Source: Bacteroidales bacterium (GTDB lineage Bacteria > Bacteroidota > Bacteroidia > Bacteroidales > F082). Taken from it: 64,000 bases of DNA. The position numbers and the translations under genes were made by a program. The notes below the pieces were generated by a model that did no database searches, had not been told where the DNA came from, and was given only the letters and a program-made list of their open reading frames with translations. This document shows positions 5,925 to 43,441 of this stretch, piece after piece (within the stretch, counting starts at the first letter, position 1; each line of letters begins with the position of its first letter). Location of the stretch: positions 12,397-76,396 of the forward strand of contig JAILBC010000132.1 of NCBI GenBank assembly GCA_024681295.1, in the 5' to 3' direction.

Positions 5925-5932
5925 GGTTTAAT

Positions 5933-6145: not shown

Positions 6146-6146
6146 G

Positions 6147-6493: not shown

Positions 6494-6497
6494 TTAG

Positions 6498-7373: not shown

Positions 7374-7620
7374 GTTTCTGTTTGTGTGCGGCTATCATCC
7401 GCTCCCATTTCTCTTCGTACATCTTGGTTATCCATCCGAGGTATGGGTCGAGTTTGAACTCCAGTATGACCTTTCCGTTCTGTTTCCCCACCGTTCCCGT
7501 CTGCCTGGCACGTGACTCGATGTACCTGTCAATTACGCCGTTGAGATAGTACTCCTCGCACCTGATTTCGTCAAGCAGCTTCTTTCTGTCGATTTCCTCT
7601 GCGGTTGGCTTGCGGCTCAT
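7363..7620 (-). CDS. Hypothetical phage protein
   Basis: 85-aa ORF overlapping the downstream gene by 11 nt. Confidence 0.45.
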   Translation of the reverse strand: MSRKPTAEEIDRKKLLDEIRCEEYYLNGVIDRYIESRARQTGTVGKQNGKVILEFKLDPYLGWITKMYEEKWERMIAAHKQKHGI

Positions 7621-7623
7621 GGA

Positions 7624-7875
7624 TTACATCTTCAGTCCTTGTGCCGTGGGGTCGATGACATCGCCGGTTCCGGGGTCTTTGCTATGCGGGTATGGATCCT
7701 CTTCATTGAGGCGTTTCAGGTCCATGCCGAGCCACATAACGGCCTCTTGGAGCCTTGTGACGGCTAAGCTCGTTTCCCTGCATGATGGCAGTTGCTTGAC
7801 TTCTTGGATTTTACCGTCAAGGTCTTTTCTGAGTTGCTTGATGGCAACGATTTCTTCTGTTCTATTCATAATCAA
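7624..7875 (-). CDS. Small helical phage protein (possible nucleotide-sponge-like hairpin fold)
   Basis: 83 aa. The motif SLAVTRLQEAVMWLGMDLKRL is followed by PYPHSKDP. See findings; the assignment is tentative. Confidence 0.5.
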   Translation of the reverse strand: MIMNRTEEIVAIKQLRKDLDGKIQEVKQLPSCRETSLAVTRLQEAVMWLGMDLKRLNEEDPYPHSKDPGTGDVIDPTAQGLKM

Positions 7876-8099
7876 TTATCTCCAAATCTATATGAAACAA
7901 ATGCAAAGTCTTTATATGGGACAAAGCCCAATCTTTCAAGATTCGCCAAATCCTCAGGCGTAACATCTTCCGGTTTTACACAATTTACATAAAGCTCGTC
8001 GTGCTCACATTTAGTAGGGTATTTTGAGTCGGAGTATTTTGAAAAAATCCGTAATGCTTCAATTAAGTCTTCCATGCCTATTTTTTTGTTTGATATCAA
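7872..8099 (-). CDS. Hypothetical phage protein
   Basis: 75-aa ORF with 4-nt overlaps on both sides. Confidence 0.45.
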   Translation of the reverse strand: MISNKKIGMEDLIEALRIFSKYSDSKYPTKCEHDELYVNCVKPEDVTPEDLANLERLGFVPYKDFAFVSYRFGDN

Positions 8100-8617
8100 A
8101 GATTTTTCCGACGCGCATACTCACAGATTAAAAGCGAGTCGCACTTGTTATTATCCCAGTTCCTGCATCTTTCGTTTTTTCTTAGGTCAATATCCGGGAA
8201 GAGGCGCTTTGCCGTGTTGAACGATGTCTGCTTGGTGTTGACCTCCTTTCTCGTCTGCTCAACGTCTTTAACTTTGACTTTTTTGTAGTCAAAAACCTTG
8301 TCTTGGTTGATCCAAACTTCATTCTGCCATGTCTTTGGCTGAACGAGTTGGTATGGTATTCCCATGGCTATGAGCAAGCCTTTCAAGATTCCGTTGATTT
8401 CACCAAAAGAGAATGTTGCCTTTGCGGAAGATCCGAATATGCTGTGAACTTCCTCCATTACAGCGAACAGGTCTCTGGTCTCGTGAAGCGTGTGCAGTTT
8501 CAGTGCAAGGGCACGAAAGTCGCATCCGTCAAGCGGGATGAACTCAAAGCGACCGTCATCGTGACGGATGGTGATGAATCCTTCTTTGCCGGGATCAATT
8601 GCGAGGTATGTTCTCAT
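8096..8617 (-). CDS. RuvC-fold Holliday junction resolvase
   Basis: N-terminal YLAIDPGKEG (catalytic Asp), MEEVHS acidic motif, and a size typical of phage RuvC-like resolvases. Confidence 0.65.
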   Translation of the reverse strand: MRTYLAIDPGKEGFITIRHDDGRFEFIPLDGCDFRALALKLHTLHETRDLFAVMEEVHSIFGSSAKATFSFGEINGILKGLLIAMGIPYQLVQPKTWQNEVWINQDKVFDYKKVKVKDVEQTRKEVNTKQTSFNTAKRLFPDIDLRKNERCRNWDNNKCDSLLICEYARRKNL

Positions 8618-8937
8618 TATACTGTCTGTTTAGTTGGTTTACTGCGTTTCTTTCTTATTGTTCCGTTGGTATAGACAAGCCTTTCCACTCCGTTGAGTTT
8701 GTCGAACTTCTCGATGGTCAGCCTGCCGAAATCGTCTGGGTTGATGTCAACGTTGTCGAGCGTGCGGAGATACCAGCCGTTGCAGGCCACGGTAGCGCCG
8801 GAACATGCGTAGTGTACAGCTGAGGTCTTTACGTTCAGCATTTTAGCCGCGTAGGTCTGGCTGGAGAAAACGCTGCGCAGGCGCCGCTTCTCGATGTCGA
8901 ACGCTGCAACCTTACTTGGCGTCCTGCTGACCGTCAT
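8617..8937 (-). CDS. Small DNA-binding protein with homing-endonuclease-type HTH module
   Basis: FSSQTYAAKMLNVKTSAVHYACSGATVACNGWYLR resembles NUMOD1/IENR-type HTH modules. No nuclease domain is present. Confidence 0.4.
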   Translation of the reverse strand: MTVSRTPSKVAAFDIEKRRLRSVFSSQTYAAKMLNVKTSAVHYACSGATVACNGWYLRTLDNVDINPDDFGRLTIEKFDKLNGVERLVYTNGTIRKKRSKPTKQTV

Positions 8938-9376
8938 CTTCCATCATCTGTTTTATCACATCGGCGGGGAAGCGATCCTTGGCTAACCTGAACAGCGCCG
9001 TGTCTGACATGGCGAAGCCGTTCGAGAACAGGTCGTTAAGCCTCTCGTTGATGTGACCCAAAAACTGGTGGTCCGCAAAACAGATGAACATGTAGATGAA
9101 CTCTACTTCAATTAGGAGGTTTCCATCCCTGTCGAGAATGCACACTTCGTCATCCTTGATGGAATAGACTTGCTGCATCGCTTGGATTGGCGGGTCGTAC
9201 TGCGACAGGAAGTCGGCTGGTTTTAGGTCGCTGCCGATGGACCGAAGATACGACGATGCGTTGAAATACATCAAGCCGTTGTCATTTAAAACCCCGAAGA
9301 GCATTCCGGGGAACTCAGGGAAGCTCTGCTCTTTGCACACGATGTCGAAAGGCTTCCCCGGGACGGTGATTCGCAT
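8912..9376 (-). CDS. First gene of leftward operon, hypothetical (possible Bro-N/KilA-N-like)
   Basis: 154-aa ORF. GVLNDNGLMYFNASSYLRSIG is weakly Bro-N-like. Confidence 0.4.
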   Translation of the reverse strand: MRITVPGKPFDIVCKEQSFPEFPGMLFGVLNDNGLMYFNASSYLRSIGSDLKPADFLSQYDPPIQAMQQVYSIKDDEVCILDRDGNLLIEVEFIYMFICFADHQFLGHINERLNDLFSNGFAMSDTALFRLAKDRFPADVIKQMMEDDGQQDAK

Positions 9377-19085: not shown

Positions 19086-22000
19086 ATGGCCGAGTTTTTC
19101 GATGTACAATATAACATAAATGTAGTTTCGCAGCCCGCCGTGACTGCTATCAACAGTTTTGTCAGAGCCGCAGAACAACTCACAAAGGCCACGGGGAATC
19201 TTATGAAATTCAAAGAGTCTCTTGCGCAGCTTGAGACTCTTGGAACAACAAAAATTCCGCTTAGGATTGATGCAAGCCAAGCATTGAAAAAGCTCCAGCA
19301 GGTCGAGAATAAGATAAATGAAATCAAGAACAGATCCGCATCGTCAATCAAGATTAACGTCACAGGAGGTGTCACGGGATCAGGTGGAAAAGGGACAGCA
19401 AAGACACGAAACGTAGTTACACCAGCCCCTACGCAATCAAGACAGCGATTGCCAAAACCTCAACCAATACCACAACCAATAAAGACAGCAAAACAACAGC
19501 AGCCAATTCAAGGCGCTGGCGGCAGAATGCGACCTGGGATTATCCCATCCAATCTACGGTATGAGGTTTTGGGTCCAACACGTATAGGAAATGTCGCCAT
19601 GTTGGATATGTTCAAGGGCATGGGGCTTATGTACGGAATCTCCGCTATTGGTTCTGGTGTGAGAGATATTCTATCCACATCTGCAGAATACCAGAATGTC
19701 ATGCAAACCGCAAAGAACATTCTGAAAACGAATTATAAAGGAGGTGGATTTGAGGCAAACTTCGCTGAAATGGAGCGTATCGCAAGACAAGTTGGTGTTG
19801 AAACGAAATTCACCGCCCCGGAGGTTGCCGACGCCGTGAAGTTCCTTGCTATGGCAGGACTTGACATCAACGCCATATCCAAGTCGATCAGGCCAATTGC
19901 TGATATCGCCCTTATCGGTGACACTGACTTGGGCACCACCGCCGACGTGATGACCAACATCATGACCGCATACGGAATCAAGCCGGAGGATATGCGCAAG
20001 ACCGCCGACGTGATGACCAGGACGTTCACCATGTCGAATACAACGCTGATGGAATTGGCAGAATCATTCAAGATGGCTGGCTCCATGCTGCATTTGGCCA
20101 ACGTTCCATTTGAGACAGCTGCGGCGGCATTCGGTGTGCTCGGTGATGCGGGAATCAAAGCGACAATGGCTGGTACGACCATGCGAACGATCATGAACAA
20201 CCTTCGCAACCCAACAAAAGGCCAAAAGTTGTATTGGGAAACGCTCGGGATACGGCGCTTTGATGAATTCGGCAACCTTAGGGAGATCAACGAGATATTT
20301 GCCGACCTAAATAGGTTGAACGGAAGTGATGAACGGTCGAAAGAGGCGAAGAGGAGATATGAAGAACTTCAAAAGAAATACGAGCCAAAGCTGGATGGGT
20401 TGACAGAAGGTAGTGCAGAATACAATAAGGTACTTGCCCAATACGACCAGGAAAGCGAGGCGATCAGAAGGCAGTTCGGAGGTGTTGACGTGTTCCGCTT
20501 GTTCCGTTTAACAGCGGCATCCGGCGCCGGTGTACTCATGAGTCAAGTTGAAAAGTGGAACAAGATAATTGAAGAGAACTTCCTTTCCGATGGCCTTTCC
20601 CAGAAACTTGCCGATGAAAAGAAAAATCAAATTGTCGGATTGTGGGCGCAATTGAAATCCGCATTCCAGGAGCAGGGCCTTCAAATCTTTGAGGAGAATG
20701 AGGGCAAACTGCGCTCTTACCTCGATAGTGCAATCAATTGGGTTAAAAGCGCTGAATTCAAAAACATTTTGAAATCTATCATAGACCTTGTTGAGACACT
20801 TGCGAATCAACTGAAAAAGTTCACAGGATGGGTGATTACATTATATGACAGATTCAAGCCTCTGGTCAAGTTGTTCCTTACTTTCCAGCTTCCTTTGAAG
20901 ATGATGACCACCGTTCTTGGTTCTGCTCTTCAAGTTTTCTATTCGTTCGCCTACTCGCTTTCTCCATTTGCGAGAGCATTGACAAGTGCAACATTCCTCC
21001 AGAGAAGGACTGGTTTGTACGGATATGTTAATGCTTATGGCGCAGCTGGTATGCAAGCCGCCGGCGGCCAGGCGGCACAAACCTATGGATTAGGTCCGAT
21101 GTTGGGTTGGTATGCCAGTCGGAAAAATCCGGAAATGTACACAAGGCTGATGGAAAACGGCGGCAATGCGAAGATGGCTATGAGGATGGATCCGAGATAT
21201 AATATGATGAACACCTCTGCCAACCTCCCGCTTTACAAGCAATACAAAGAACTTGAGAAGCGTAATAATTACGCAAACAGGTTACAGGCAAGAGGAATGG
21301 CTTTCGGGATTGGCGGTTTTCTTGCCGGGTCATATTTTGGTTCTGCCGTAGCTCCCGAATCTGATTGGGCTCCGGTTATAGGAGGAGCCGCTGGATCACT
21401 TGGCGCTGTTGCATTATCCGCATCGTCAATTCCTTACGCTGGATGGATTGCTGCGGCTGTAATTGCCGCAGCCGCTGGAACCGCGTGGATCATTAAATAC
21501 ACAAGGGAGTGTAGAGAGGCGCGGGCTGCTGTTGATGAATGGGCAGACAGCTTAGGGAAATTGGATGTACAGTCGATGCGGATAGATAATGCAACAGACT
21601 ACTTTATCGCATCGGCAAGAATTCGAATGGCCTATATAGATGATGAGACGAGAAAGATCAACGAACAGACGATAGCGTGGAAGAAATGGTACAACGCCAT
21701 GAACGGGGTTCAGGACGAAGAGCCATCATCTAAAGACTATATGCTTAATGTACCAGGATTCAAGGAACTATCAAATAAGTTTAAAGAATCTCCCAAAACC
21801 ACAAGAAATGAAATTCAAGATAAACTCAAAGAAAGTGGCTTATATGAAACACTAAACAACGAAGCGAAATCAATATTTGGAGACACATACCGCGATATTA
21901 CTAAAATGTCATTTGGGGATGTGTATCGTGCTTCGCTTAGAAATCAGTTCTTAGGCGAATCATTAACTGAAGAGTTTGAAGACCCGCTTAGAACTGTCAA

Positions 22001-23054
22001 TGGCGTTTATCTTGCAGCCCAGGCGCAAAACTACTTCGGCAATCTTCCTGACGGTTTTATATATGATTTTCAAAACGCACTCGCCAACATTACGGATGAA
22101 AGCGAGATCGATGCGGCTATCAATGGACTGAGAAACAAATACCTCAAACCTGCTGGTGATTTTTTCAGTTACACAGAAGAGGAAAATGCCGATTATGAAG
22201 CTTTGAGCGGAATTCATGAGCTAAACAAGCTCTTAAGATATCCAACATACTACACTACATTCAAACATTTCTTTGACGAAAAGATAAACGAACTAACAAC
22301 AGATGCACAGAATAAGCTTCAAGACCCGTCAATTGTTTTGAAAAACGCTGTGTCTGAATTATTCCCAGGTATAAGCAATCCCGAGGACTTTTTCGGTTTT
22401 ACTAAAACATCAGTTGACCAATGGATTGCAGGATTGGGTCCAGAATACAAAGAGAAAGCATTACAAACTGCGTTCCAAGGATTGGTTGAGAAGTTTAATA
22501 ACGCTTCGTCTTTCGACAAGTTACAATTGCTCCCGTTACTCAATAGAAAAATTTGGGAGGATTTCGGTGCAGACTTACAAAACATCAGCGGTGGTTTCTA
22601 TCCTTATTTAGAAAACGACCATCCTTACGGAGAAGATGTTGAATGGAATAGCGAGAAAGGCTATTTCTTGAAGAACGGTATTCCTTACGATCCAACAAGC
22701 AACTGGATATATAAACCACATCAATTGCTCAATAACGAGTTAAGGATTCCTTTTATTGATCCGCAGTGGAACAGTAATGAGTTTCAATTCCAAAACAGCC
22801 CACTCTATTATCCATCAGGTCTTTCCTATTACCAGACCGACCAAGATGGTTTCAGACCAAGCGGTAGAACCCAAACGGCACGCGCGGAAAACCATTACCA
22901 CATAAGCCTCCATTTCGACAATGCAGTGAGGATTGAAAACATGAACGGTTCGGACCTTACAAGCGAGGAGGGTGCCACGTTCATCGCTCAGGTCGTCAGG
23001 GACACCATCGGCAATGCAGTCGAGACTTTCAACCCGAATGAATTGACAGTTTAA
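19086..23054 (+). CDS. Tail tape measure protein
   Basis: 1322 aa. Contains TP901-type core repeats (TADVMTNIMTAYG / TADVMTRTFTMSNTT / AGTTMRTIMNNL), hydrophobic segments, and sits after the chaperone genes. Confidence 0.9.
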   Translation: MAEFFDVQYNINVVSQPAVTAINSFVRAAEQLTKATGNLMKFKESLAQLETLGTTKIPLRIDASQALKKLQQVENKINEIKNRSASSIKINVTGGVTGSGGKGTAKTRNVVTPAPTQSRQRLPKPQPIPQPIKTAKQQQPIQGAGGRMRPGIIPSNLRYEVLGPTRIGNVAMLDMFKGMGLMYGISAIGSGVRDILSTSAEYQNVMQTAKNILKTNYKGGGFEANFAEMERIARQVGVETKFTAPEVADAVKFLAMAGLDINAISKSIRPIADIALIGDTDLGTTADVMTNIMTAYGIKPEDMRKTADVMTRTFTMSNTTLMELAESFKMAGSMLHLANVPFETAAAAFGVLGDAGIKATMAGTTMRTIMNNLRNPTKGQKLYWETLGIRRFDEFGNLREINEIFADLNRLNGSDERSKEAKRRYEELQKKYEPKLDGLTEGSAEYNKVLAQYDQESEAIRRQFGGVDVFRLFRLTAASGAGVLMSQVEKWNKIIEENFLSDGLSQKLADEKKNQIVGLWAQLKSAFQEQGLQIFEENEGKLRSYLDSAINWVKSAEFKNILKSIIDLVETLANQLKKFTGWVITLYDRFKPLVKLFLTFQLPLKMMTTVLGSALQVFYSFAYSLSPFARALTSATFLQRRTGLYGYVNAYGAAGMQAAGGQAAQTYGLGPMLGWYASRKNPEMYTRLMENGGNAKMAMRMDPRYNMMNTSANLPLYKQYKELEKRNNYANRLQARGMAFGIGGFLAGSYFGSAVAPESDWAPVIGGAAGSLGAVALSASSIPYAGWIAAAVIAAAAGTAWIIKYTRECREARAAVDEWADSLGKLDVQSMRIDNATDYFIASARIRMAYIDDETRKINEQTIAWKKWYNAMNGVQDEEPSSKDYMLNVPGFKELSNKFKESPKTTRNEIQDKLKESGLYETLNNEAKSIFGDTYRDITKMSFGDVYRASLRNQFLGESLTEEFEDPLRTVNGVYLAAQAQNYFGNLPDGFIYDFQNALANITDESEIDAAINGLRNKYLKPAGDFFSYTEEENADYEALSGIHELNKLLRYPTYYTTFKHFFDEKINELTTDAQNKLQDPSIVLKNAVSELFPGISNPEDFFGFTKTSVDQWIAGLGPEYKEKALQTAFQGLVEKFNNASSFDKLQLLPLLNRKIWEDFGADLQNISGGFYPYLENDHPYGEDVEWNSEKGYFLKNGIPYDPTSNWIYKPHQLLNNELRIPFIDPQWNSNEFQFQNSPLYYPSGLSYYQTDQDGFRPSGRTQTARAENHYHISLHFDNAVRIENMNGSDLTSEEGATFIAQVVRDTIGNAVETFNPNELTV

Positions 23055-31454: not shown

Positions 31455-34400
31455 ATGGCAAAGAAAATAACTATCGAAGGAAGCGATATCCTTAGCGCAC
31501 TAACCGAAGCATGGGGTGGTGTAAACAACACCGGAGCAACCGTTACCGTACACGGGACCGAAGTGCCTGCTGGTGCCGAATGGGGCATAAACCGAGGTGA
31601 AATCGAGAGATTCATCAAGGAGCAGTTTTGTCTCAAAGCCGGTGTGTTCAGGTGGTATAAGCCAAACGATGTTAACTACTACAGCCTTGTAGTGTTCGCA
31701 AAGGCGTCAGACGCTACAGCATGGGACGCAGACCACAGCTTGACAAACTACCTTCAAATCATCCAACTTCCAATCAGTACTGTAGCCACCGACTCCTACA
31801 TCTGCCGTCTCGCAGCCAACAAGAGCACGAGCAACGCCTATGTGGTGAAGAACGGCGACAGCTTTGGTGTCAATCTGCGTTACCAGTCGGTGTTTGTTGA
31901 AGGTGCGACAAGTACCTCCAGCAACTACTCGGCTGATGGTGTTATCACCATCGAGCGCAGCGTCAACGCGGGTTCGTCTTGGGTGCAGGTGGCACGATTG
32001 GGAGGGCAGACCTCACTTGATCCATCAGCAGAGACATTCCCTATCGAAATTGACCTTGGAGAATATCTTGTCGCAAGTATGAACAACCGTTTCCGCATCC
32101 GTGCTTCATTCCAGTACACTGCAGATGGTGTGACAAAGACAAGCTATTCTTCGTACATCACATTCAATGTTTCATCGGTAAACCTCGCCATGTCGATGGC
32201 GACCGATTGGGCGGTGCCGATTACCGCAAATTCATCGACATCACAGATGGCTTTGAACTTCACCCTTTACGGAGCAGTCCAGAAGTATCTGACCATCAAG
32301 GTTGACGGAACGACATTCATCGACGCAAGCCCTTACGATGCAAGTGTCAACAGCGAGCAAACTGGCAATATCGCAATCACCGACTCCACTAAGGCCATCT
32401 TCACTCACGGCGTTCACGAAGTCCAAGCCTTCCTTACCTGCTCCAACGGTTGCGGTGGTACGTTGACTTCCGACGTCATGGTCTATCACTTGATGGTGGT
32501 CAACAGCTCCACCACCGGCGCAGACCTGACACAGCCGCATCTGCTTCTTCAGGAGATTGCAACATTGGTTGACAACTTCGTCCAGTCAAGGATTTGCAAG
32601 TATGCCGTATATCACCCGGACGGCGACGATATCGACCTGTCGCTTATCATCTGCTCTTCGGCCCAAAACTACATCACGAACCCATCAACGGAGTATTTCC
32701 GTGCAGAGAAAACGGCTGAGAGCGGAGAACAGTACGACCTCAACGCCACGTTGGAAATCGAGGACCAGGCCGGCAACACTCTCAACTCGTACTTGCAGGT
32801 ATTGAGGCACGACGGCGGCACTACGACCAACTTCCTGTATGAGACAACAGGCGTCGCCTATCAGTCCATACCCGTTGACAACACCGCTGGCTATGCCCCG
32901 ACTGCTGGAACGACTTTCTACCTCAACCCGAAGCTTCGCAACAACAGCGAGGCAAACCCGGAGCGCATCCTGAACGCCGCCAATGCCAATGCCGAAGTTA
33001 CCTCCACGTGGGAACACTTCAAGCTTGGTCAGCAAGACGGATGGCTGTTGGACTCTGAGGGTAACAAGATGTTGCGTGTACCGGCTGGCTGCAACCTCGG
33101 TATCAGCCTGAATCCTTTCTCCCAATTCCTGTCAACGCCAAACAGCGGCATGACAATGGACTTCGACATCAAGGTCAGCAACGTGACCAATGAGGACGAT
33201 CCCATCCTGAGAATCTGCGAGGCCAGCGGACAGAACTTCATCGGGCTTCGCCTGAAACCAATGAGAGGAACGATGACCACGGCCTCACACACGACGGAAA
33301 GCACCAGCGACTTCTCGTGGCAAGAGGATGAACGCACCCATATCTCAATCAACATCCACAATGCGGTCGCCCCCAACAGTGCCAACGATGGCTTGACCTC
33401 GGACGGCACCACACCGACTGGAACGCTTGCCCTTGTGAGGGTGCTGATTAACGGCGTCATCAACCGCGAATTCGTGTTCTCCACCACAAGCGCCACGGAG
33501 TTCTGCACAGCAGCGCTTTCCAACGGCGGCATCATCATCGGCCAGGAGGGTGCCGACATCGACATTTACGGCATTCGTATCTGGGCGTCGCAGCAGCTAT
33601 CCGCAAGAAACGTCGTACAGAACTATATCGCCACCATCCCGTCTGCAGCAGAAAAGGAAAGAGTGAAGAAAGAAAACGACATCATCGAAAGCGGCGTTGT
33701 CAACGCAGAGAAGGTGAAGGCCCTCGGTAAGAACGTGCTTATCTGGCACGGAGCCGAGATATGGCATGGCGCATCATCCACCCAAAACGGTTGGTGGGAG
33801 TTCTACCAATATGATGCAGACGGCCAGCTTATTCCGGAACTGAGCGGCACCATAGGAAAGGCCACTGCAAGCCTGCCGTCTAAAGGCCAGGGTACGACGG
33901 CCAAGACATACTACTACTGGAACATCCAGACGAAGATCAGCGACCTCACGACGCTTATCAACGTGCCGATTGCCGACCTGCATAGCAGCATCAGCGTAAC
34001 AATGCTCACCGACGAGCAGCTCGCCGCCTACAAGGAGGACAACGAGAGCGCCTCTAAGTGGTCGAGGGCCGCATACATCAAGGGCGGCAACCTTGGGAAG
34101 AACTTCCCGCTCGCAACGGAGAGCGCACAGGTGTACGAGGTTATAGACATCGACGGAGTGGACGGCGTGAGGGTCCCCGACGGATGGATCGACGGAAACG
34201 GAAAATACAGGGGCGTCGGCTACACGATCATCAACGGCGCACCGCTGGCGCAGAAGTTCGTCCTGAAAATCAACTATGCGTCCTCGATGCAGTCGCACAT
34301 CATCGGTGTCAACAAGCTCTACAACGACCTCCACAAGATCTATTGCGGCTCGAACGCCCTGCAGGCGACAACGCCCGGAGCGGTCGTGGCCAAGCACCTC

Positions 34401-37400
34401 GAGCCGTTCCTGTTCTTCACGCAGGCCAGTGACAACGCGGCTCCCGTGTATCGGGGACCCGGCGCCTGGGGCCCCGGAAAGATGGACAAGCCGACGTGGG
34501 GTTACGTGAAGTCTGCGTTCCCAAACTTCGCCATGTTCGAGGGTGCAGACAACAACAAGGAGCTCACCGACATGCGCGTCCCGTTCGACGACGCCGTTCA
34601 TGCCGGAGACACCTATCCGAAGGTGTATTACCACCCCGAGAACGAATGCTTCATGTACCGCGTCGACTCCGGGCTCCAGCACTCGCAGAAATGCATCGAC
34701 TTCGACGGAGGAAAGACCGTTGATGTCGAAACCACGGACGGCACGCACCTCTATCCTGGCGAATACCCGCACCCGAACCTCGTGTCGTTCCTGAAGAACG
34801 CGTGGAACTTCCTGTTCCTGCACAACCCGCGCGTCAAGCCGTTCATCACCAGCGGCGGAACGCTCGGTTCGTTCAGCGACTTCGCTTCCAGCGATGCGGC
34901 ACAGGACACCGGCAACAAGTACTGGTGTTCCGACTATAAGCTGTACCGCTATGACTTCGCAGACGGCGCCTGGGTCAATGCCGGCCTGTGGAATGGCACT
35001 TCCTATGATGAGGTTAATCTCCTCGACTCTTCGGCTGAGAGCGGGACGCTGGCATACGCCACGTACACCGCATGGAACGCCCTTACGAGCAACCAGAAGG
35101 CCGACTACGAGGGTTATGTGAACAAGGCGTTTATTTCCGGTATTGTCTCTCATGCGAAAGCCAACATCGGCAACTACTTCGTGGTGAATTCATTGAAGTT
35201 CCACTATGCTTTCGAGAACCATTTCATCGCCGGAACCGACAACTGTAGTAAAAACACTTACTACGTGCTTGTCCCGACCGGCGGCAGCATGGGGGCATGG
35301 ACCGACTGGAAGTTTGAGCTTCACCAAGACGACGTAGATACCGTTCTCGCCACCGACAACAGCGGATTGCAGACCAAGCCGTACTACATCGACCGTATGC
35401 ACCCCTATGCAGAGGATGACGTGAACGAGACGGATTCGCTCTACGAAGGGACTAACAACGTCCTGTTCAACCTATGTGAGGAAATGTGGGAGGATTCGCT
35501 GGAAATCAGCGACACCCTGAGAAGCATCCTTAGTTCGATGTCTGGTCTGACAGGTGGAACTGGCAGTGCGGTAAGCGACGGCATGAACGGCATATGGAAG
35601 GCCCTCAACCGCTATATCTTCGACGTTCAGCGTTACATCCCAGCCATGGCCTTCAATGAGGCTGCTAGGATCCGTTACGAGTTCCCGAAGCTTATGAACT
35701 ACACCAGCGACCAGAGACAGGTTGACCCGATCGAGCAGTCCATGGGCGACCAACTCCAGGCAGAACTTCAATGGATGAAGCGCCGTCTGGTTTACATGGC
35801 CTCTTATGCAGCATTCGGTGAGTTCGCCCCTGCAACGACGGTGAACACCGGTATCAGCGACCTTTCTCAGTCGTTCGCCATGGTTATGGCTGCGCTGCCA
35901 AACAGCACTACTCAGACGTCGCAATACACATTCCGGCTGGTCCCTCACCAGTGGATCTATCCTACTGCGGCCATGGCCCAAAGTAGCATCAACCCGCACG
36001 TCAGGGTGGCGCCAGGTGCCGCCAACATGCCAAACGGCTACTTCGAGATTGTCTTGAGTCCTACGGCACGAAGCGATGACGGTATCACCATCTACGGCAT
36101 CAACTACTACCGAAGCATCGGCAACATCGGCAACAACTGTTTCAACCCGGCTGGCACGCTGACCCTCAACGGCAAGCGCCTGACGGAATTCAAGGCCGAG
36201 CCATCGACGTACTATTCCACCACTGTTGGCGGCAACAGTATCACCGCCGAGGCATGGCGGCAACTTTCCGACACGGAGAAAGCCAACTACCTACCTGCGT
36301 TCCGTTGCTCAGGTGTCAATGTCGGTTCCGCTACGAGAATCGCAGACCTGTCGTTCAACGGCTGCTCTTCGGTGGGTGGCAACACCATCGACATCGGAGG
36401 CTTGTCAAGGGCTGCATCCATCGACTTGCGCTATACCGACATCCTTTCCGTCGCACTGCCTCAGACACCGACGCTGACCACGCTGAAACTTCCGGCAAAG
36501 CTTACGACGCTATCCATCATGAACTGCGGCTCGTTGGAAACCGTCTCAGTGCAAGGTTTCACTTCGATGACCAGTATGACGGTCAAGGGCTGCCCCCTGC
36601 TTTCAACGGCTACCCGTGCCTTGGTGCTGAGTCTGCACGATGGAGGGGCGGCTGTCACCAACATCGAGATAGACAACATCAACTGGCAGGCGCAGACCAT
36701 CGACGGAGAAACAATGCGCTGGCTGCTTGACGTTGGCGACGCTGGATCGTGCAAGCTTTCTGGTCGAATAGAAATGGCTTCGACTTCAGCAACGCCGTCG
36801 GGCCGTCTCTACTACGATGATGTGGCGCGTCTTATCAGGCGTTACGGCAACATCTATGACTCCACTATAGCCGTCACCGACAATGCGCTGTATGTGAACT
36901 TCGCCACCACCGCCGTCACAGCGGCTATGTTGGCTATCGAAGGACGAAAGTACATCAATCCTTCGGAGTTGACCGACAAAACCATCGTAAACGGCAATAT
37001 CACCGGCGGTTACTACAACGACCTGCAGCTTTTGGTCAACGGCACCGGCAACAATGTCGCTGCTGCGCAGAAGTCCGATGGAACGTGGACCCCGAATGTC
37101 AAGTGGACCATCGAGACTACCGGCATGTCATCGTATGCCGCCATCGAGGACATCTATTCTCCTGTCATCCATGTCATCTTGGTAAGCCAGGTGACGATGG
37201 TGGTTCGTGCGACACTTACCGACATTAATGGCAATGAGCGTTACGTCGAAAAGACCATCGGTCTATGGCGCCGTGTCCCTCAGGTCGGCGACTTTGCCTG
37301 GACTGACGGTGAATTCGATAACGAGGATGATACCTCGAAAGCACTCGCAGGCTTGGTTGTCATGCGTCAGATGTACACCTCAGACAACCAACTGACAACG

Positions 37401-38474
37401 GATCCCGCTCAGGCTGCTTGGTATAAGATATGGGTGAATTCGTTCTGCGGCGGCACAAACGCCAACGCGAACAACGTCACGATGCTTTCGTCATCCGACG
37501 GACAAAGCTCTCAATACGGCGACGTATCGACGCAGTGCTGGGGAATGTATCCCGTGACAGGCGGCAGTTCCGTAGGTCTCGACGATACGAAGTCCAACAG
37601 TGTCTATGTTGACGGCTTGCTTGCTGCCATTGCCACCGCAACCGGCAGAAGCGACGTCTTTGATACTCCGTTGAGCAACCTTACTGGTGACGTATACCTG
37701 AGAAAGGATGCGGCTGCAGTGGCTGCGGCTGGCGGCGGTATCGCCATGCAGGATGACACCCAACCCGACGGGTGGGCCGTGCAGACAGCAAGTTACATGA
37801 CCAACTTCGACAGCGAAGGCGAGCGCGACAAATTGATGGCCTATGCCGATACGGTGTTGCAAGCCGTGTTGGATTACATGAATATCAGCGACGATGACCT
37901 GCCGGATGACTGTAAGGACTCTCTTGGCAACACCCATCCGCAGACTCCACAGGCCCTTGCCGACCTCACTCAGATGTTGGTCCAGTATGCTGCGGACAAT
38001 GGCGTTTCCAACCCTGCTCGTTATCGCGAGTTTATGTTCTGCGCCGCGCGTCTGTGTGATGTATGGTGCCCCGCGGACGTAAGTGCCAACATCATCAACG
38101 GCACACGCATCACGGAAGCCCAGCTTGACGACCAGTACAAACGCGGCAAGTGGATGCTCCCGTCGTCGGCGTTGCTGGCGAGGATATTCAATTTCCTCGG
38201 CAACAGTCGTTCCGGTTACAACACTTCTGCGGCACCAAGTGCGGACTACGCCAATAATAATGTGGTGGAGGCCAAACTTGCACTGTTCTCTAATGCTATT
38301 GCAAAGGGTAGGACCGTACCTGTGAGTTACAGTAGTGGCCAGTGGAGCGGTACTGAGACCAGTCGCACCTACGCCAGGCTCGTGGGCTTCACCGATGGTC
38401 TCGCCATCGCCTACTACAACAAGTACTACGGGTACGTTGTTCGGCCTGTCGCAGCATTCAAATTTGTTCCATAA
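31455..38474 (+). CDS. Giant (2339 aa) multidomain DGR target protein, putative receptor-binding tail protein with C-terminal DUF1566/C-type-lectin-fold variable domain
   Basis: The VR occupies the last ~48 codons. The C-terminus GKWMLPSSALLARIF...YGYVVRPVAAF resembles DUF1566/CLec DGR targets. Internal LamG-like, CotH-like and LRR-like segments are described in the findings. Confidence 0.9.
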   Translation: MAKKITIEGSDILSALTEAWGGVNNTGATVTVHGTEVPAGAEWGINRGEIERFIKEQFCLKAGVFRWYKPNDVNYYSLVVFAKASDATAWDADHSLTNYLQIIQLPISTVATDSYICRLAANKSTSNAYVVKNGDSFGVNLRYQSVFVEGATSTSSNYSADGVITIERSVNAGSSWVQVARLGGQTSLDPSAETFPIEIDLGEYLVASMNNRFRIRASFQYTADGVTKTSYSSYITFNVSSVNLAMSMATDWAVPITANSSTSQMALNFTLYGAVQKYLTIKVDGTTFIDASPYDASVNSEQTGNIAITDSTKAIFTHGVHEVQAFLTCSNGCGGTLTSDVMVYHLMVVNSSTTGADLTQPHLLLQEIATLVDNFVQSRICKYAVYHPDGDDIDLSLIICSSAQNYITNPSTEYFRAEKTAESGEQYDLNATLEIEDQAGNTLNSYLQVLRHDGGTTTNFLYETTGVAYQSIPVDNTAGYAPTAGTTFYLNPKLRNNSEANPERILNAANANAEVTSTWEHFKLGQQDGWLLDSEGNKMLRVPAGCNLGISLNPFSQFLSTPNSGMTMDFDIKVSNVTNEDDPILRICEASGQNFIGLRLKPMRGTMTTASHTTESTSDFSWQEDERTHISINIHNAVAPNSANDGLTSDGTTPTGTLALVRVLINGVINREFVFSTTSATEFCTAALSNGGIIIGQEGADIDIYGIRIWASQQLSARNVVQNYIATIPSAAEKERVKKENDIIESGVVNAEKVKALGKNVLIWHGAEIWHGASSTQNGWWEFYQYDADGQLIPELSGTIGKATASLPSKGQGTTAKTYYYWNIQTKISDLTTLINVPIADLHSSISVTMLTDEQLAAYKEDNESASKWSRAAYIKGGNLGKNFPLATESAQVYEVIDIDGVDGVRVPDGWIDGNGKYRGVGYTIINGAPLAQKFVLKINYASSMQSHIIGVNKLYNDLHKIYCGSNALQATTPGAVVAKHLEPFLFFTQASDNAAPVYRGPGAWGPGKMDKPTWGYVKSAFPNFAMFEGADNNKELTDMRVPFDDAVHAGDTYPKVYYHPENECFMYRVDSGLQHSQKCIDFDGGKTVDVETTDGTHLYPGEYPHPNLVSFLKNAWNFLFLHNPRVKPFITSGGTLGSFSDFASSDAAQDTGNKYWCSDYKLYRYDFADGAWVNAGLWNGTSYDEVNLLDSSAESGTLAYATYTAWNALTSNQKADYEGYVNKAFISGIVSHAKANIGNYFVVNSLKFHYAFENHFIAGTDNCSKNTYYVLVPTGGSMGAWTDWKFELHQDDVDTVLATDNSGLQTKPYYIDRMHPYAEDDVNETDSLYEGTNNVLFNLCEEMWEDSLEISDTLRSILSSMSGLTGGTGSAVSDGMNGIWKALNRYIFDVQRYIPAMAFNEAARIRYEFPKLMNYTSDQRQVDPIEQSMGDQLQAELQWMKRRLVYMASYAAFGEFAPATTVNTGISDLSQSFAMVMAALPNSTTQTSQYTFRLVPHQWIYPTAAMAQSSINPHVRVAPGAANMPNGYFEIVLSPTARSDDGITIYGINYYRSIGNIGNNCFNPAGTLTLNGKRLTEFKAEPSTYYSTTVGGNSITAEAWRQLSDTEKANYLPAFRCSGVNVGSATRIADLSFNGCSSVGGNTIDIGGLSRAASIDLRYTDILSVALPQTPTLTTLKLPAKLTTLSIMNCGSLETVSVQGFTSMTSMTVKGCPLLSTATRALVLSLHDGGAAVTNIEIDNINWQAQTIDGETMRWLLDVGDAGSCKLSGRIEMASTSATPSGRLYYDDVARLIRRYGNIYDSTIAVTDNALYVNFATTAVTAAMLAIEGRKYINPSELTDKTIVNGNITGGYYNDLQLLVNGTGNNVAAAQKSDGTWTPNVKWTIETTGMSSYAAIEDIYSPVIHVILVSQVTMVVRATLTDINGNERYVEKTIGLWRRVPQVGDFAWTDGEFDNEDDTSKALAGLVVMRQMYTSDNQLTTDPAQAAWYKIWVNSFCGGTNANANNVTMLSSSDGQSSQYGDVSTQCWGMYPVTGGSSVGLDDTKSNSVYVDGLLAAIATATGRSDVFDTPLSNLTGDVYLRKDAAAVAAAGGGIAMQDDTQPDGWAVQTASYMTNFDSEGERDKLMAYADTVLQAVLDYMNISDDDLPDDCKDSLGNTHPQTPQALADLTQMLVQYAADNGVSNPARYREFMFCAARLCDVWCPADVSANIINGTRITEAQLDDQYKRGKWMLPSSALLARIFNFLGNSRSGYNTSAAPSADYANNNVVEAKLALFSNAIAKGRTVPVSYSSGQWSGTETSRTYARLVGFTDGLAIAYYNKYYGYVVRPVAAFKFVP
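38329..38457 (+). repeat. DGR variable repeat (VR)
   Basis: 129 bp aligned to 39109-39237 at a fixed offset of 780. The 21 mismatches all fall at positions that are A in the TR. The last 26 bp are identical. Confidence 0.95.
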
Positions 38475-38528: not shown

Positions 38529-39002
38529 GTGGAGAAAAAACAGAAAGTAAACAAGAAACAATTGGATATGGAAGAAGAGTTCGACGGTGTGTTCATCCCT
38601 CAGGAAGCAATAGAAGACAGCAACGCCAAGAAAAAGGTGCATCGCACGTTGCGTCAGCTTCCCATATATCGTGACATGTCGAACTTGAAAAGCATGATCG
38701 TTGACCTCTACGACATCTTGCCGAGAAAGATGACGAAGTACGCCGATACAACTTTGGGTACGGCATGTGAGGCGAAGAAATGTATCGGACTCGCTGAAGC
38801 GAGCCGGGACAGTGAGGAACGTTCCGACTACCTCAAAACTGCAAGAGTGTTTGTGGAGGATATCATCGACGATGCAACTATCCTGTTCCACAAGAAACGA
38901 ATCGACAAGAAAAAGGAAAAACAGATAAAGGATCAGGCGCGTAAGGTCGTGGCCCAATGCGTAGCATGGCGCGATTATACCAATGACCAGGGCGCGGAGT
39001 AA
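38529..39002 (+). CDS. avd: Accessory variability determinant (Avd)-like four-helix-bundle protein
   Basis: Located between target/VR and TR/RT as in canonical DGRs. Small and basic, with a helical pattern (LPIYRDMSNLKSMIVDLYDILPRKMTKY...). It uses a GTG start; an alternative ATG is at 38568. Confidence 0.6.
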   Translation: MEKKQKVNKKQLDMEEEFDGVFIPQEAIEDSNAKKKVHRTLRQLPIYRDMSNLKSMIVDLYDILPRKMTKYADTTLGTACEAKKCIGLAEASRDSEERSDYLKTARVFVEDIIDDATILFHKKRIDKKKEKQIKDQARKVVAQCVAWRDYTNDQGAE

Positions 39003-39108
39003 TTAAATATTTTTGTTATGAGCGGAGTGTCATATAATCCGATGAATGGGCGGCTTACTGCGGGACGTAAAAAGTCCTTCAGTTACGAAGGTGCAAAGCC
39101 GCAAAAAG

Positions 39109-39237
39109 ACAGTAGTAACCAGTGGAGCGGTACTGAGAACAATCGCAACAACGCCAGGAACGTGAACTTCAACAATGGTAACGCCAACAACAACAACAAC
39201 AAGTACAACGGGAACGTTGTTCGGCCTGTCGCAGCAT
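39109..39237 (+). repeat. DGR template repeat (TR)
   Basis: Adenine-rich copy of the VR containing 17 AAY (Asn) codons in the VR reading frame. It lies directly upstream of the RT domain. Confidence 0.95.
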
Positions 39238-39251
39238 CCCAAGATTATGAC

Positions 39252-40560
39252 GTGCCTGAGTCCTTTGTCAATTCCGTATGGGAAGCCTATTACGATTGTC
39301 TTAGAGGCAAGATGCGCTCGAAGCAAGCCGTGGAATACATGGAAATAGCCAACGAGGACATCCCCGTGTTGGCACAAGAATTATGGAGCGGGACTTACCA
39401 TCCTGGTACATCGACCTGCTTTCTTAGTCCACTATCCGAAACTAAGAGAGGTATTCGCGGCGAACTTTCGGGACCGCATCGTGCATCACTGGATATGCCT
39501 GCGCTTGAATCCGTTGTTCGAGGAACGCTTCGAGAAGCAAGGGAATGTGTCGTTCAACTGCCGCAAGGAGTTTGGGACGGAGAAAGCCGTGCTTCATGTA
39601 GCGGAAGGAATGAAGAGGGTGAGCGACTGCTACCACACCCCGGCATGGGTGTTCAAAGGAGATCTCGTTGGATTCTTCATGTCAATCGACAAGGATTTGC
39701 TTTGGTATCTCTTGGAACGCTTCATCCGTCGCCAGCGCAAGCGCTTCGAGCGGGAAGGATGGAAAACGCTCGACTTCTCAATTCTTGCACGCCTGAGGAT
39801 GACACAGATGCCCGAAATGTATTGGGACATCCTTATGAGAACGACAATGGTGGTTGTCATGCACCATCCGGAACTGGATTGCATACTCAACACAGACCCG
39901 AGCGAATGGCACAACCTGGCGAAAAACAAGAGCCTGTTCACATCGCCCACCGGAGAACCCATCGGAAACCTTACGACGCAGTTGTTCGCCAACTTCCTGA
40001 TGTCGTTCTTCATCAACTTTGTTCAATGGCTGTTCAGAGGAAAGAATTACTGCATGGCGCAGTTTGTGGACGATTTCGTCATTGTGTGCGACAACCTCCG
40101 CTTCCTCGTGGAAAGCATACCGAAGATAGAGGAATTCCTGCATTCCAAACTTCGCCTGACGCTCCACAAGCACAAGAGATACCTGCAACCCGTCTCTCAC
40201 GGTGTGAAGTTCGTCGGCACCTACATCAAGCCTGGCAGACTTTATCTTTCCAACCAAACGCTTTCGAGGTTGAAGGAACGTTGCCACGGGTTTGCGATCA
40301 CCATGGCAGAGAGCGAATTGGAGGATTGGGACAGGGAACGCATGGAACAGACATTCAACTCGTACCTTGGATTCACAAGGAAGAGAATGACGTACAATTA
40401 CAGGAAGGAAAACATAGAAGGAATGGGACACGACTTCTGGCGTAACTTTTACGTCCGAGGCAGCTATGAAGTAATCAGAAGAAGAAAAAACATAAAACCG
40501 AGAGACAATGAATATCTACGAACAACAGCCGCCGGTGGTGGCGACAAACAAATTGCTTGA
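39252..40560 (+). CDS. DGR reverse transcriptase, reading frame interrupted by a +1 shift at 39423-39427
   Basis: The 39018 frame gives SFVNSVWEAYYDCLRGK...YHPGTSTCFL. The +1 frame continues VHYPKLREVFAANFRDRIVHH, NCRKEFGTEKA, FKGDLVGFFMSID, PIGNLTTQLFANF and QFVDDFVIV (YxDD-type). A GTG at 39252 is a possible start. Confidence 0.85.
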
Positions 40561-40969: not shown

Positions 40970-43441
40970 ATGACGTCGATAGCCAAAGGAACCATCATAC
41001 TCAGCAACATCAACGACTCGCTGACGGTGATTATGTCGCCGAACAGTTGTGTCATACCTGCAGATTACGATGGCAGCAATGTCGATTTGACCAACGCCTA
41101 CACCGTGGTAGAGGCCAAACGCGGCAGCACTCCGATGGCATTCACCCTTACCCAGGTGTCTATCACCAACAACTCGATACAGTATTCCGTCACGAGCATC
41201 GACACCTACCACAAGAAAATTGCCATCACAACCCTTCCGACGGGCGTGGTTTCCGGGGCCATCGTTTTCACGCTGACAACCAGCGACGGCGGCACGACGC
41301 AGATCAACTTCCAGTTTGCCGTTGTCAGGCAGGCCACGATGTTCGATTGGGTGCTCGATTGGGAAAACAACAAGACCACCATCGGCAACACCTACATCAT
41401 CACCCCGAAGCTGTTTGTCGGGCATCGCACACCTGGTACTGGATTAGGCACCCTTAGCGGCGTCTATATTGGTCCCGACGATCAGAACATAGGGACGGCT
41501 GGTATCTACGGCCTGCATGAAGGGGATGAAATATTCAGGCTCAACAAGGACGGCGGTGTCATAGGTGGATGGAATATCGGGACGGCCTACCTGTTCGGTG
41601 GTCACGTCTTTATCGGCTCCACTGCATCGTATATTGGTGTTTCTCCGACGGCACTGACTGAGGCGATAGTTACTGCAAGTGGATTCTCACACAGGAATAC
41701 TGTTCATGACGATGGAGGCGTGGCTATGTTCTACAATAGTGCCAGCGATTATGGCTTGGAAGGATATCTGCCAAAGACCGTCAACAACGGTACAACGACC
41801 TACAACAAGACTTTCAGCCTTGGCCATGTCAATCTCATAGCCGGATGGAATTTCGACACCGAAGCCATTTGGATCGGGACAAAAGCCAATACCGCAGGCG
41901 CCGGCACCGCAAACAACAGCAGTATCACCATTGGCACAAACGGCTTGCGTGGTTACGGTTGGTATATCGACACCGGTGGGAATGTCAGCTTCGCTGGAGG
42001 TAACGTCGCATTCAGTTCATCGGCAAACACCATAGCGGGATGGAACATCGGGACCGGGAGGCTTTCGACGGCCCATGCCGCCTTGGTGTCGGTGACTAAT
42101 CAAGGCTCTTTGTATCTTTCCGCAGCCGATATCAGCAACGTCACTGATGGGAACCTTGACTCAACTATTGCTTCGAGCGGCGGCATCATCATCAAGGCAT
42201 TGTCAAGCGGTGCCGAGTTGCTGGGTTACAACACATCCGGCAATATGCTGTTCAAGTTGTCCGCTGCCGCCACATCGCAGATTGGAGCGTGGAAATTCGA
42301 CAACAGCGACTTGTTCACTGGCACAAAGGCAACGACTGGCTTCACCGGCGCTTCTGGAAGCATGACCATCGGGTCAACTGGTATTCGTGGTTATAAGTGG
42401 AGATTGGAGAGCGACGGCAGCGGCGCCTTGGCCAACGGCGATATCAGTTGGGACACTAACGGAATACTCCTCGCAGGAACCATTAACGTCAAGGATGGCA
42501 ACGGCGTCGTAAAGGCTGGAATGTCAGCAGCAGGTACAGGTGCTTCTGGTATCAGATTCTTTGCAGGAGGCGCAACTCCAGCATCAGCGCCTTTCCGTGT
42601 TGACGAAACAGGTAAGGTGGTTGCTACACTTGGCACTATTGGTAGTTGGATTATTAGCGACGGATCTTTGGTATCGAGCACCGAGACCGGCAACCGAATC
42701 ACCCTTGGACCAACGCTTATCCAGTTGAGAAAAGACGAGATCAACGTTTGTTCCGTTGCCGAATATATCTGTGGTGAATTCCAAAACGAGAGGACTTCGA
42801 GCTCGACAAGCGTAGGAGCATCCATCAGTTTATCCCAGGAAACAGGAGTGATTCAGACGCAAGGTGTTGGCTTCGGCAACTCGACACCCAAGGCGATGAT
42901 GAGTTATAACGGTTTTTATGCGAATAGGTCCGGTGTGATCGCTTATACAGACAGCAACGACAACCAACGCCACTTTGCGGCCATATTTGCCTCAGGCAAG
43001 GCAAATGTTACCGAAAGTTGGGCGTTGAACGGCGACGAGACATGCGTGGTCGGTGTTTACGGGAAAGCGTCAAATACCGGTTCGGCACCTGCATACGGCG
43101 GCTACTTCGAGAACCTGAAAGCCTGTGGTTTGGTACTGAAGATGGTTTTAATTACCGATTCCTCATCTTCATCGACAACGCTTTCGTCAAAGGTGTCTGC
43201 TGTTGTCGGAACCGTCAGCGAGAACCAGACAAAGACAGTTGTCCTTCCAAGCGAGAATATAGAGGGGAAAACCATTGTCATCCGCAATAACGACCGTGGA
43301 ACAATCAGTGTTTCTCCGGCAAGCGGACAATACATGAATTCATGGGGAAGCACAAATTCTTATTCAATAACTGGAAACAAGACGGTTATATTCATCCTGA
43401 TAAAACTTGATTCATCAACCTACATCTGGACGGCAAACTAA
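40970..43441 (+). CDS. Tail fibre-like protein with reiterated G-x-W-x-[IF] motifs
   Basis: 823 aa. Recurrent IGGWNIGTAYLFGG, IAGWNFDTEAIWIG, IAGWNIGTGRLS, IGAWKFDNSDLFTG and IGSWIISDGSLVS units. Gly/Ser/Thr/Asn-rich. Confidence 0.65.
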   Translation: MTSIAKGTIILSNINDSLTVIMSPNSCVIPADYDGSNVDLTNAYTVVEAKRGSTPMAFTLTQVSITNNSIQYSVTSIDTYHKKIAITTLPTGVVSGAIVFTLTTSDGGTTQINFQFAVVRQATMFDWVLDWENNKTTIGNTYIITPKLFVGHRTPGTGLGTLSGVYIGPDDQNIGTAGIYGLHEGDEIFRLNKDGGVIGGWNIGTAYLFGGHVFIGSTASYIGVSPTALTEAIVTASGFSHRNTVHDDGGVAMFYNSASDYGLEGYLPKTVNNGTTTYNKTFSLGHVNLIAGWNFDTEAIWIGTKANTAGAGTANNSSITIGTNGLRGYGWYIDTGGNVSFAGGNVAFSSSANTIAGWNIGTGRLSTAHAALVSVTNQGSLYLSAADISNVTDGNLDSTIASSGGIIIKALSSGAELLGYNTSGNMLFKLSAAATSQIGAWKFDNSDLFTGTKATTGFTGASGSMTIGSTGIRGYKWRLESDGSGALANGDISWDTNGILLAGTINVKDGNGVVKAGMSAAGTGASGIRFFAGGATPASAPFRVDETGKVVATLGTIGSWIISDGSLVSSTETGNRITLGPTLIQLRKDEINVCSVAEYICGEFQNERTSSSTSVGASISLSQETGVIQTQGVGFGNSTPKAMMSYNGFYANRSGVIAYTDSNDNQRHFAAIFASGKANVTESWALNGDETCVVGVYGKASNTGSAPAYGGYFENLKACGLVLKMVLITDSSSSSTTLSSKVSAVVGTVSENQTKTVVLPSENIEGKTIVIRNNDRGTISVSPASGQYMNSWGSTNSYSITGNKTVIFILIKLDSSTYIWTAN

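Follow-up and report, generated by a model that had tools for sequence, protein, structure and literature searches.

A giant target gene between tail genes and a diversity-generating retroelement cassette

We analysed a 64,000-nucleotide stretch of DNA from a Bacteroidales assembly (GenBank GCA_024681295.1, contig JAILBC010000132.1, positions 12,397 to 76,396; hereafter the window, to which all positions refer) that carries a diversity-generating retroelement (DGR) together with its target gene. This gene encodes a protein of 2339 residues and lies between tail/baseplate genes and a cassette consisting of an Avd-like gene, a template region (TR) and a reverse transcriptase (RT); the variable region (VR) lies within a C-terminal domain that is probably of the Lcl_C/DUF1566 type, with a C-type-lectin fold. 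The elements of the locus are as follows:

31455-38474, + strand: DGR target gene (variable protein), a single open reading frame (ORF) of 2339 residues within the tail/baseplate module
38329-38462, + strand: VR, with substituted codons at residues 2295-2327 (nucleotides 38337-38435), then the invariant 3' stretch GTTGTTCGGCCTGTCGCAGCAT
38529-39002, + strand: Avd-like accessory protein (four-helix-bundle type), 157 residues, identified by BLASTP to gp26 of phage BS-TP1
39018-39425, + strand: RT gene, zero-frame part: a leader reading through the TR, and the conserved RT N-terminus (...VWEAYYDCLRGK...GTSTCFL)
39109-39242, + strand: TR; of its 49 adenines, 46 occupy positions 1-2 of codons in the VR reading frame
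39427-40560, + strand: body of the RT (VHYPKLREVFAANFRDRIVHHW...; RVT_1), in the +1 frame, which is entered if base 39426 is skipped at CTT-A-GTC

Upstream of the target, a tape-measure gene (19086-23054; PhageMin_Tail, E 5e-40) is accompanied by a DUF6046 gene and by ORFs with weak matches to tail and tail-fibre PHROGs; downstream are the Avd-like ORF, the TR and the RT. This arrangement agrees with that of the cultured Bacteroides phage BS-TP1, whose gene order runs tape measure, baseplate hubs, tail fibre, gp27 (the homologue of the target), four-helix-bundle protein, RT and a Baseplate_J-like protein. The 157-residue ORF of the window matches BS-TP1 gp26, annotated as 'Four helix bundle protein', at E 4e-8 in a pairwise BLASTP comparison, and matches no Pfam family, Avd included.

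The target ORF begins with ATG and runs for 2339 codons with no internal stop. A word-indexed search of ~5.8 billion proteins with the target as query gave 73 matches, among which 67 are proteins of 2050-2800 residues, most of them aligning over 84-100% of the target's length at 23-96% identity. The closest (P0001; 96% identical) is encoded on an 85-kb metagenome scaffold. Since these 67 relatives are full-length and co-linear, the ORF represents a single conserved gene, not an artefact of fusion. The preliminary description of this DNA had read it as a single gene while naming, as what would speak against that reading, evidence for several genes; dozens of co-linear homologues of full length rule out both several genes and an artefact.

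Adenine-specific diversification of the C-terminus

The VR and the TR form a direct repeat of 134 nucleotides, with the TR copy 780 nucleotides downstream of the VR. They differ at 23 positions: 21 of these are adenines in the TR and affect 16 codons (residues 2295-2327), and the other two are C/T differences beyond the 3' boundary of the repeat. In all, TR adenines occur in 28 codons (residues 2292-2336). The VR ends 12 nucleotides ahead of the stop codon and makes up the last ~45 residues of the target; the pair is a textbook case of a DGR and sits, as initially described, at the very end of a 7-kb gene.

Comparison with the nearest relative shows that this pair has been in use. The target differs from P0001 at 15 of its last 48 residues, versus 71 of the 2291 elsewhere, a ~10-fold enrichment at the VR end. 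The TRs of the window and of the 96%-identical relative (locus L002) are the same except for one AAC codon; their VRs differ solely at TR-adenine positions, and the difference in VR length mirrors the one-codon indel of the TR. Because the VR differences are confined to TR-adenine sites and the TR indel is tracked, retrohoming has taken place in these lineages since they split: after divergence from the closest sequenced relative, mutagenic, adenine-specific retrohoming has rewritten the VR.

A reverse transcriptase divided between two frames

A DGR-type RT adjoins the target, and its body is identified by a match to RVT_1 (E 1e-7) and by an FRDRIVHH motif. The zero-frame ORF, which spans 39018-40445, contains the TR and the RT N-terminus, and the RT body continues in the +1 frame. 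The frame changes within a conserved site (39417-39446; TGC TTT CTT A/G GTY CAY TAY CC) that we found in nine independent assemblies (the window and loci L002, L004 and L079-L084). The extra base at the split is either A or G, and a Leu codon (UUA or UUG) is kept in the +1 register either way. The site is reminiscent of the Ty1 slip site, CUU-AGG-C. The junction peptide predicted for the window reads ...TSTCFLVHYPK. In BS-TP1 and in one further relative (L006), the RT is one intact ORF (...TSTCFLVK[FY]PKLREVFAA...).

An RT that is divided between two frames at 39425/39427 could be read as broken, in which case the DGR would be dead, the VR a fossil, and the target protein no longer hypervariable. 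We reject this explanation, and consider it very improbable, on three grounds. The split is common to the nine independent assemblies, in two variants of the extra base. Between the window and L004, substitutions in the RT body fall at codon positions 1/2/3 at counts of 61/41/169 in the +1 frame, a pattern that shows purifying selection in that frame. Finally, the VRs of near-identical phages differ solely at TR-adenine sites and follow the TR indel, as described above.

The zero frame beyond the site also departs from expectation: it is stop-free for 969-1050 nucleotides in all nine sequences, whereas 10-13 stops are expected from synonymous-codon shuffles, none of 5000 of which reaches zero. 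In the corresponding frame, the intact RTs of relatives contain 18 and 39 stops, as expected. We therefore put forward the split RT as a candidate programmed +1 frameshift, with apparent selection against zero-frame stops. No stimulatory RNA structure was found downstream of the site (z = +1.8, i.e., less stable than shuffled sequence), a scan of IMG/VR for the frameshift site gave 0 matches, and one search of the literature brought up no published case of a frameshifted DGR RT. A conserved +1 frameshift of the RT, if real, would be a new layer of DGR regulation.

Past the site, the zero frame encodes a peptide of low conservation in which Arg, His, Gly and Pro are abundant. The TR itself is in frame within the long ORF that continues to the RT N-terminus, and the same is true of the intact RT ORFs of BS-TP1 and L006; as it lies inside this frame, the translated TR gives a weak match to Lcl_C. 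Translation of the RT may start upstream of the TR or internally, e.g., at a GTG at ~39250.

Domain organisation of the target protein

The preliminary description had proposed four recognisable segments in the target: LamG/ConA-like, CotH-like, leucine-rich-repeat (LRR)-like and DUF1566/C-type-lectin-like. Because the target has no Pfam match of its own, we tested these segments through family profiles, relatives and predicted structure. By these routes all four are recognisable, although the target sequence itself does not disclose them: the LamG-like segment is seen by fold, the LRR by profile, and the Lcl_C and CotH segments in relatives. The sole match of the whole target in the libraries searched is PHROG 24896 (unknown function), at residues 110-834. 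The resulting domain map is as follows:

31455-32915, + strand: N-terminal ~487 residues, presumed attachment region, overlapping part of the PHROG 24896 match; no Pfam match
32916-33587, + strand: ConA/LamG-like lectin jelly roll, residues 488-711 (AF2 model and Foldseek; weak Laminin_G_3 in P0220)
33735-34259, + strand: beta-rich domain with no family assignment, residues ~761-935 (secondary structure of the AF2 model)
34260-35819, + strand: CotH-like (atypical-kinase-like) module, residues ~936-1455 (family conservation, Pfam in relatives, BFVD fold matches)
35856-36116, + strand: small beta-sandwich, residues ~1468-1554, faintly CBM35/CBM6-like (AF2 model)
36321-36776, + strand: LRR region, residues ~1623-1774 (family profile against PDB; LRR_4 in P0062)
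36777-38060, + strand: poorly conserved region, residues ~1775-2202 (conservation profile; no Pfam matches)
38061-38471, + strand: putative C-terminal Lcl_C/DUF1566-type (C-type-lectin-fold) domain with the VR, residues ~2203-2339 (relatives and profile)

An AF2 model of residues 470-1560, built from 33 sequences, is confident (pLDDT 90.3, pTM 0.90). When it was compared with the PDB by Foldseek, the 50 best matches were all clostridial neurotoxin Hc or NTNH structures (E 4e-9 to 1e-6), the best being botulinum neurotoxin Hc (E 4e-9, probability 1.00). Hc comprises a lectin-like jelly roll and a beta-trefoil, and its N-terminal half, HCN, is a ConA-like lectin jelly roll. The Foldseek output gives no aligned ranges, and we placed the jelly roll at residues 488-711 by combining the identity of the matches with the secondary structure of the model. 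The assignment of this beta-rich block as a ConA/LamG-like jelly roll is thus supported at the level of predicted structure, and the LamG/ConA-like segment originally proposed (residues 562-712) falls within it. A Laminin_G_3 (PF13385) match at the homologous position of one relative (P0220) is weak (E 0.027), and the target itself has no Pfam match to this family. Over ~500 aligned columns, Hc and the target share ~10% identity with a root-mean-square deviation of ~19 Å and TM scores of 0.15/0.36; the likeness is that of one domain at the fold level and not homology of whole proteins.

A second model, confined to residues 905-1560 (pLDDT 86.8), has CBM35/CBM6 structures as its best PDB matches by Foldseek, at non-significant values (E 0.1-0.5). 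These matches would belong to the small beta-sandwich at residues ~1468-1554.

The LRR region emerges from a hidden Markov model (HMM) of the 68-sequence alignment, which matches the LRR of RPP1 (7crb; E 5.5e-6) and that of DRC6 (8glv; E 6e-4) in the PDB. The profile alignment spans LSFNGCSSVGG...KGCPLLS (residues ~1623-1717), and Pfam LRR_4 in relative P0062 maps onto target residues 1627-1668; the target sequence alone has no Pfam LRR match. The LRR-like segment predicted earlier (residues 1616-1722) is accordingly borne out within a region of residues ~1623-1774. The C-terminal domain is recognised in a similar way. Pfam Lcl_C (PF07603) is matched by two relatives, P0062 (E 9e-10, which passes the cut-off) and P0038, at a place corresponding to target residues 2203-2332, and a profile of the last ~190 residues matches 8q4e (HbP1; E 1e-3) via the motifs W-x-LP and YWSSTE...VRPVAAF; together these support the proposed DUF1566/C-type-lectin end (residues 2229-2339). 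Sub-segments of the target searched against Pfam at E<=10 give no Lcl_C match of their own.

A divergent CotH-like module

The CotH-like module is the best-conserved part of the protein. In blocks of 40 residues, identity across the family reaches 0.65-0.70 around residues 921-1040, 1241-1320 and 1401-1440, versus 0.2-0.3 in the C-terminal third. Its invariant residues are K938, N940, S943, Q946 and H948; K1009 and D1011; D1262, N1263, K1266 and N1267; D1292, D1293 and D1295; and E1402, R1405, Y1408 and E1409. The invariant polar residues persist in the most distant family members. When the module was searched exhaustively as an HMM, 647 cluster representatives (clustered at 50% identity) came up at E<=1e-3, of which 383 remain at E<=1e-30. 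Among the best 150 of the 647, 137 are proteins of 1800-3300 residues with the module similarly placed, and the remaining shorter sequences are probably partial.

The name of the module comes from its relatives. Five of them match Pfam CotH (PF08757; gathering score 23.8 bits), always co-linearly, over profile positions ~90-272 of 322, and always where they align with target residues 1151-1375:

P0066: E 5e-6 (core alone 3e-7), 26.6 bits, above the cut-off
P0223: E 2.5e-5, 24.4 bits, above the cut-off
one member of alignment A7: E 7e-5
P0221: E 0.015, below the gathering score
P0137 core: E 0.04, below the gathering score

The part of the CotH model that is matched is its catalytic half. No other Pfam family recurs in the module region of relatives; Kelch_1 appears there weakly, in a 466-residue core fragment derived from P0137 (E 0.046) and in a related fragment, P0218 (E 0.21). 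The target itself gives no match to PF08757 even at E<=10, and so does not reach the gathering score.

Another point of likeness is the conserved Asp...Asp pair. The two catalytic Asp residues of Bacillus subtilis CotH, D228 and D251 (catalytic and metal-binding), are 23 residues apart (PMC7821199). In distant family members the first invariant Asp is likewise 23 residues from the second Asp of the DDxD motif (D1020 to D1043 in P0137); the equivalent distance in the target is 31, owing to an 8-residue hairpin insertion. This likeness is one of motif and spacing.

Foldseek comparison of the residue 905-1560 model with BFVD retrieves family members (E 6e-18) and also phage proteins that their depositors named 'Spore coat protein' (E 4e-10) and 'Spore coat protein H kinase fold' (E 4e-7). 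Further matches in that search were gp353 of Bacillus phage G (E 2e-9 over 548 aligned columns) and, from the crAss-like phage cr52_1, an 'internalin-like protein' (E 5e-6, 637 columns). To judge from these predicted folds, relatives outside Bacteroidales phages suggest that the module is distributed more widely among phages.

Relative to solved CotH kinases of B. subtilis and B. cereus (5JD9/5JDA), the module is far larger (~520 residues, with insertions), the target falls below every threshold, and there is no significant match of fold or sequence. A profile word-index search aimed at bona fide CotH proteins retrieved only 12 shorter proteins of the same family, several of them on short contigs and possibly fragments, and searches with the single relatives P0066 and P0223 against PDB sequences did not reach CotH. 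We conclude that the module is a very divergent, insertion-rich CotH-like domain that has probably retained its active site; the CotH assignment is weakly supported, and membership of the family is not established by these tests. The initial proposal of CotH-like domains at residues 932-1319 hence stands as to place, within a conserved module with Pfam matches in five relatives, but gains no significant PDB match.

Neighbouring genes and hosts

We found 72 related loci in genome assemblies, most of them from Prevotella, Bacteroides, Muribaculaceae, Tannerellaceae and other Bacteroidales of gut and rumen. A minority are in metagenome-assembled genome bins that carry the labels of other taxa (Flexilinea, Eggerthellaceae, Staphylococcus, Clostridium and others), which are possibly mis-binned. 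Two close full-length homologues, P0006 (L003) and P0010 (L005), at 58-69% identity, have no Avd or RT gene in the 3 kb that follow them; their place is taken by DUF4376, lysis-type and other genes.

Just after the DGR cassette of the window, at 40970-43441, is an 823-residue ORF whose C-terminal 260 residues match PHROG 15074 (unknown function; E 4e-34); BS-TP1 has an 863-residue hypothetical protein at this position. The 823-residue ORF is probably another tail/baseplate component. Positions 1-9000 of the window are distinguished by a G+C content of 0.40-0.48 (versus ~0.50-0.57), an opposite AT skew and ORFs that are mostly on the minus strand; this part either flanks the element or forms a separate module within it.

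Relationship to published DGR targets

The preliminary description regarded the combination of a CotH-like module with a hypervariable lectin tip as an unusual architecture. That view is not upheld: giant DGR targets with CotH, Laminin_G_3, LRR and C-type-lectin modules have already been published (PMC4159848, PMC5758913, PMC8008677 and others). CotH was listed among the Pfam domains of DGR targets in the human microbiome (Ye 2014, PMC4159848), and 'category f1' targets were described as proteins of ~2000 residues, alignable over their whole length, that have phage genes as neighbours and carry weak motifs of CotH and Laminin_G_3 (Wu et al. 2017, NAR, PMC5758913). Viral cluster PC_00012 contains a CotH-like kinase, with an example of 2284 residues (Roux et al. 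2020, bioRxiv 10.1101/2020.04.01.020958), and a phage CotH-family kinase fused to a hypervariable C-type lectin was noted as 'currently unstudied' (Benler et al. 2021, PMC8008677). The Bacteroides 'domain group 3' consists of proteins of >2000 residues with carbohydrate-binding motifs and LRRs, and with motifs homologous to CotH's active regions (5JDA) (Macadangdang et al. 2024, bioRxiv 10.1101/2024.11.15.621889). The BS-TP1 paper, in turn, describes multi-domain DGR targets of ~2000 residues as potential tail-related proteins (Gut Microbes 2025, PMC12694917).

Category f1, PC_00012, domain group 3 and our target have in common a size above ~2000 residues with end-to-end alignment among members, weak CotH, Laminin_G_3/carbohydrate-binding and LRR motifs with a C-terminal C-type-lectin VR, and a phage or prophage setting in gut Bacteroidales. 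The CotH (via relatives), ConA-like (by fold) and LRR (by profile) modules of the target match the motif set of the class, and, judged from the descriptions, there is no architectural difference. The architecture has therefore been described in Bacteroidales phages since 2014-2017, and the target is another member, assigned by matching published descriptions. Giant CotH-type variable proteins are among the commonest classes of DGR target in Bacteroidales phages of gut and rumen.

The only homologue that we found in a cultured phage is BS-TP1 gp27 (PQ571274), which is 24% identical over 87% of the length. Both genes have tail genes upstream, and a four-helix-bundle protein and an RT downstream; the BS-TP1 RT is intact, whereas that of the target locus needs the +1 frameshift. 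Another point of reference is Mtd of Bordetella phage BPP-1, the classic DGR target and a receptor-binding protein with a DGR-diversified C-terminus of the C-type-lectin fold and a cassette of Avd, TR and RT. Mtd and the target share a diversified C-terminus, which in the target is probably of the lectin fold too, adenine-specific mutagenesis and a cassette of TR, RT and an Avd or Avd-like gene. On the other hand, Mtd has ~380 residues and no lectin, CotH-like or LRR modules, and the target's putative C-type-lectin domain, unlike that of Mtd, is of the Lcl_C/DUF1566 sequence type.

What the window adds to this class is a delimited domain map, a confident model of residues 470-1560, a list of invariant putative catalytic residues, and population evidence of an active DGR; knowledge of the class is otherwise unchanged.

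A probable receptor-binding protein with a possible enzymatic module

In our judgement the target probably serves a tailed phage or prophage of Bacteroidales as a giant, modular receptor-binding protein associated with the baseplate or tail. We infer its location in the virion, its ligand and any enzymatic activity from the features set out above. The hypervariable tip would bind a variable ligand at the host surface (a Bacteroidales capsule, another glycan or a surface protein), and diversification of the VR would let the phage follow variation in its receptor. The ConA-like lectin, the small beta-sandwich and the LRR region may offer additional, non-diversified surfaces for binding or assembly. 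The CotH-like module could be an active enzyme, an atypical kinase (phosphotransferase) working at or in the host envelope; we suggest activity because the module is strongly conserved and retains a full set of invariant Asp, Asn and Lys residues.

Several observations weigh against one or another part of this interpretation. Its placement in a phage tail module, and with it the label 'tail protein', rests on gene order. The giant protein can exist with no adjacent DGR, as P0006 and P0010, which have no neighbouring RT, indicate. Searched as a whole, the target has no Pfam match at E<=1, and seven of its sub-segments match none of the four named families at E<=10; nor does it have a match in NCBIfam or among PDB sequences. 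Pfam CotH is matched in a minority of the relatives scanned. The residue 905-1560 model has no PDB match at E<=0.001 by Foldseek, and the CotH structures 5JD9/5JDA are absent from the 50 matches listed; neither the whole-protein profile nor a profile of the distant cores reaches CotH among PDB sequences. Furthermore, an extracellular kinase would require a phosphate donor outside the cell.

For the CotH-like module alone, we weigh the idea that it is no kinase at all, being instead an unrelated enzyme (e.g., one that modifies or degrades glycans, as in tailspikes) or a scaffold that shares a short motif. A confident model with no significant fold match in the PDB, the want of a profile match to CotH among PDB sequences, and Pfam matches of marginal significance (best 3e-7), restricted to profile positions ~90-272 of 322, speak for this idea. 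Yet CotH is the only recurrent Pfam family there, always co-linear in its five relatives, with Kelch_1 a weak singleton; the D-x4-N...D-x-D arrangement and the 23-residue Asp spacing agree with CotH; and Foldseek ties the model (E 4e-10 to 4e-7) to phage proteins whose depositors named a CotH kinase fold. The CotH assignment has moreover been reached by other methods in two independent papers (Roux et al. 2020; Macadangdang et al. 2024). We consider a non-kinase module unlikely.

A different objection accepts the kinase and moves it. The CotH family includes proven protein kinases (PMC7821199), and Roux et al. suggested for PC_00012 an effector role, adding that kinase and VR may touch in the folded protein (bioRxiv 10.1101/2020.04.01.020958). 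Applied to the target, this would make it an ejected or intracellular effector, in which a CotH-like Ser/Thr kinase manipulates host signalling and the DGR tip selects an intracellular substrate. Very large phage proteins are indeed sometimes ejected into the host. Against this, the target gene lies inside a tail-fibre/baseplate block, its lectin-like, LRR and C-type-lectin modules are typical of extracellular binding, and no signal marks ejection; to our knowledge, those phage DGR targets that have been characterised, such as Mtd, bind receptors. We hold the effector role to be quite improbable.

Returning to the receptor-binding protein, its most speculative element is that the CotH-like module is an active, virion-borne phosphotransferase that the DGR-diversified tip delivers to changing ligands on the host surface. 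We offer this tentatively, as a doubtful proposition. If true, the protein would not be a passive fibre: it would be a tail enzyme with programmable targeting, one that modifies the envelope or capsule of Bacteroidales as the phage adsorbs.

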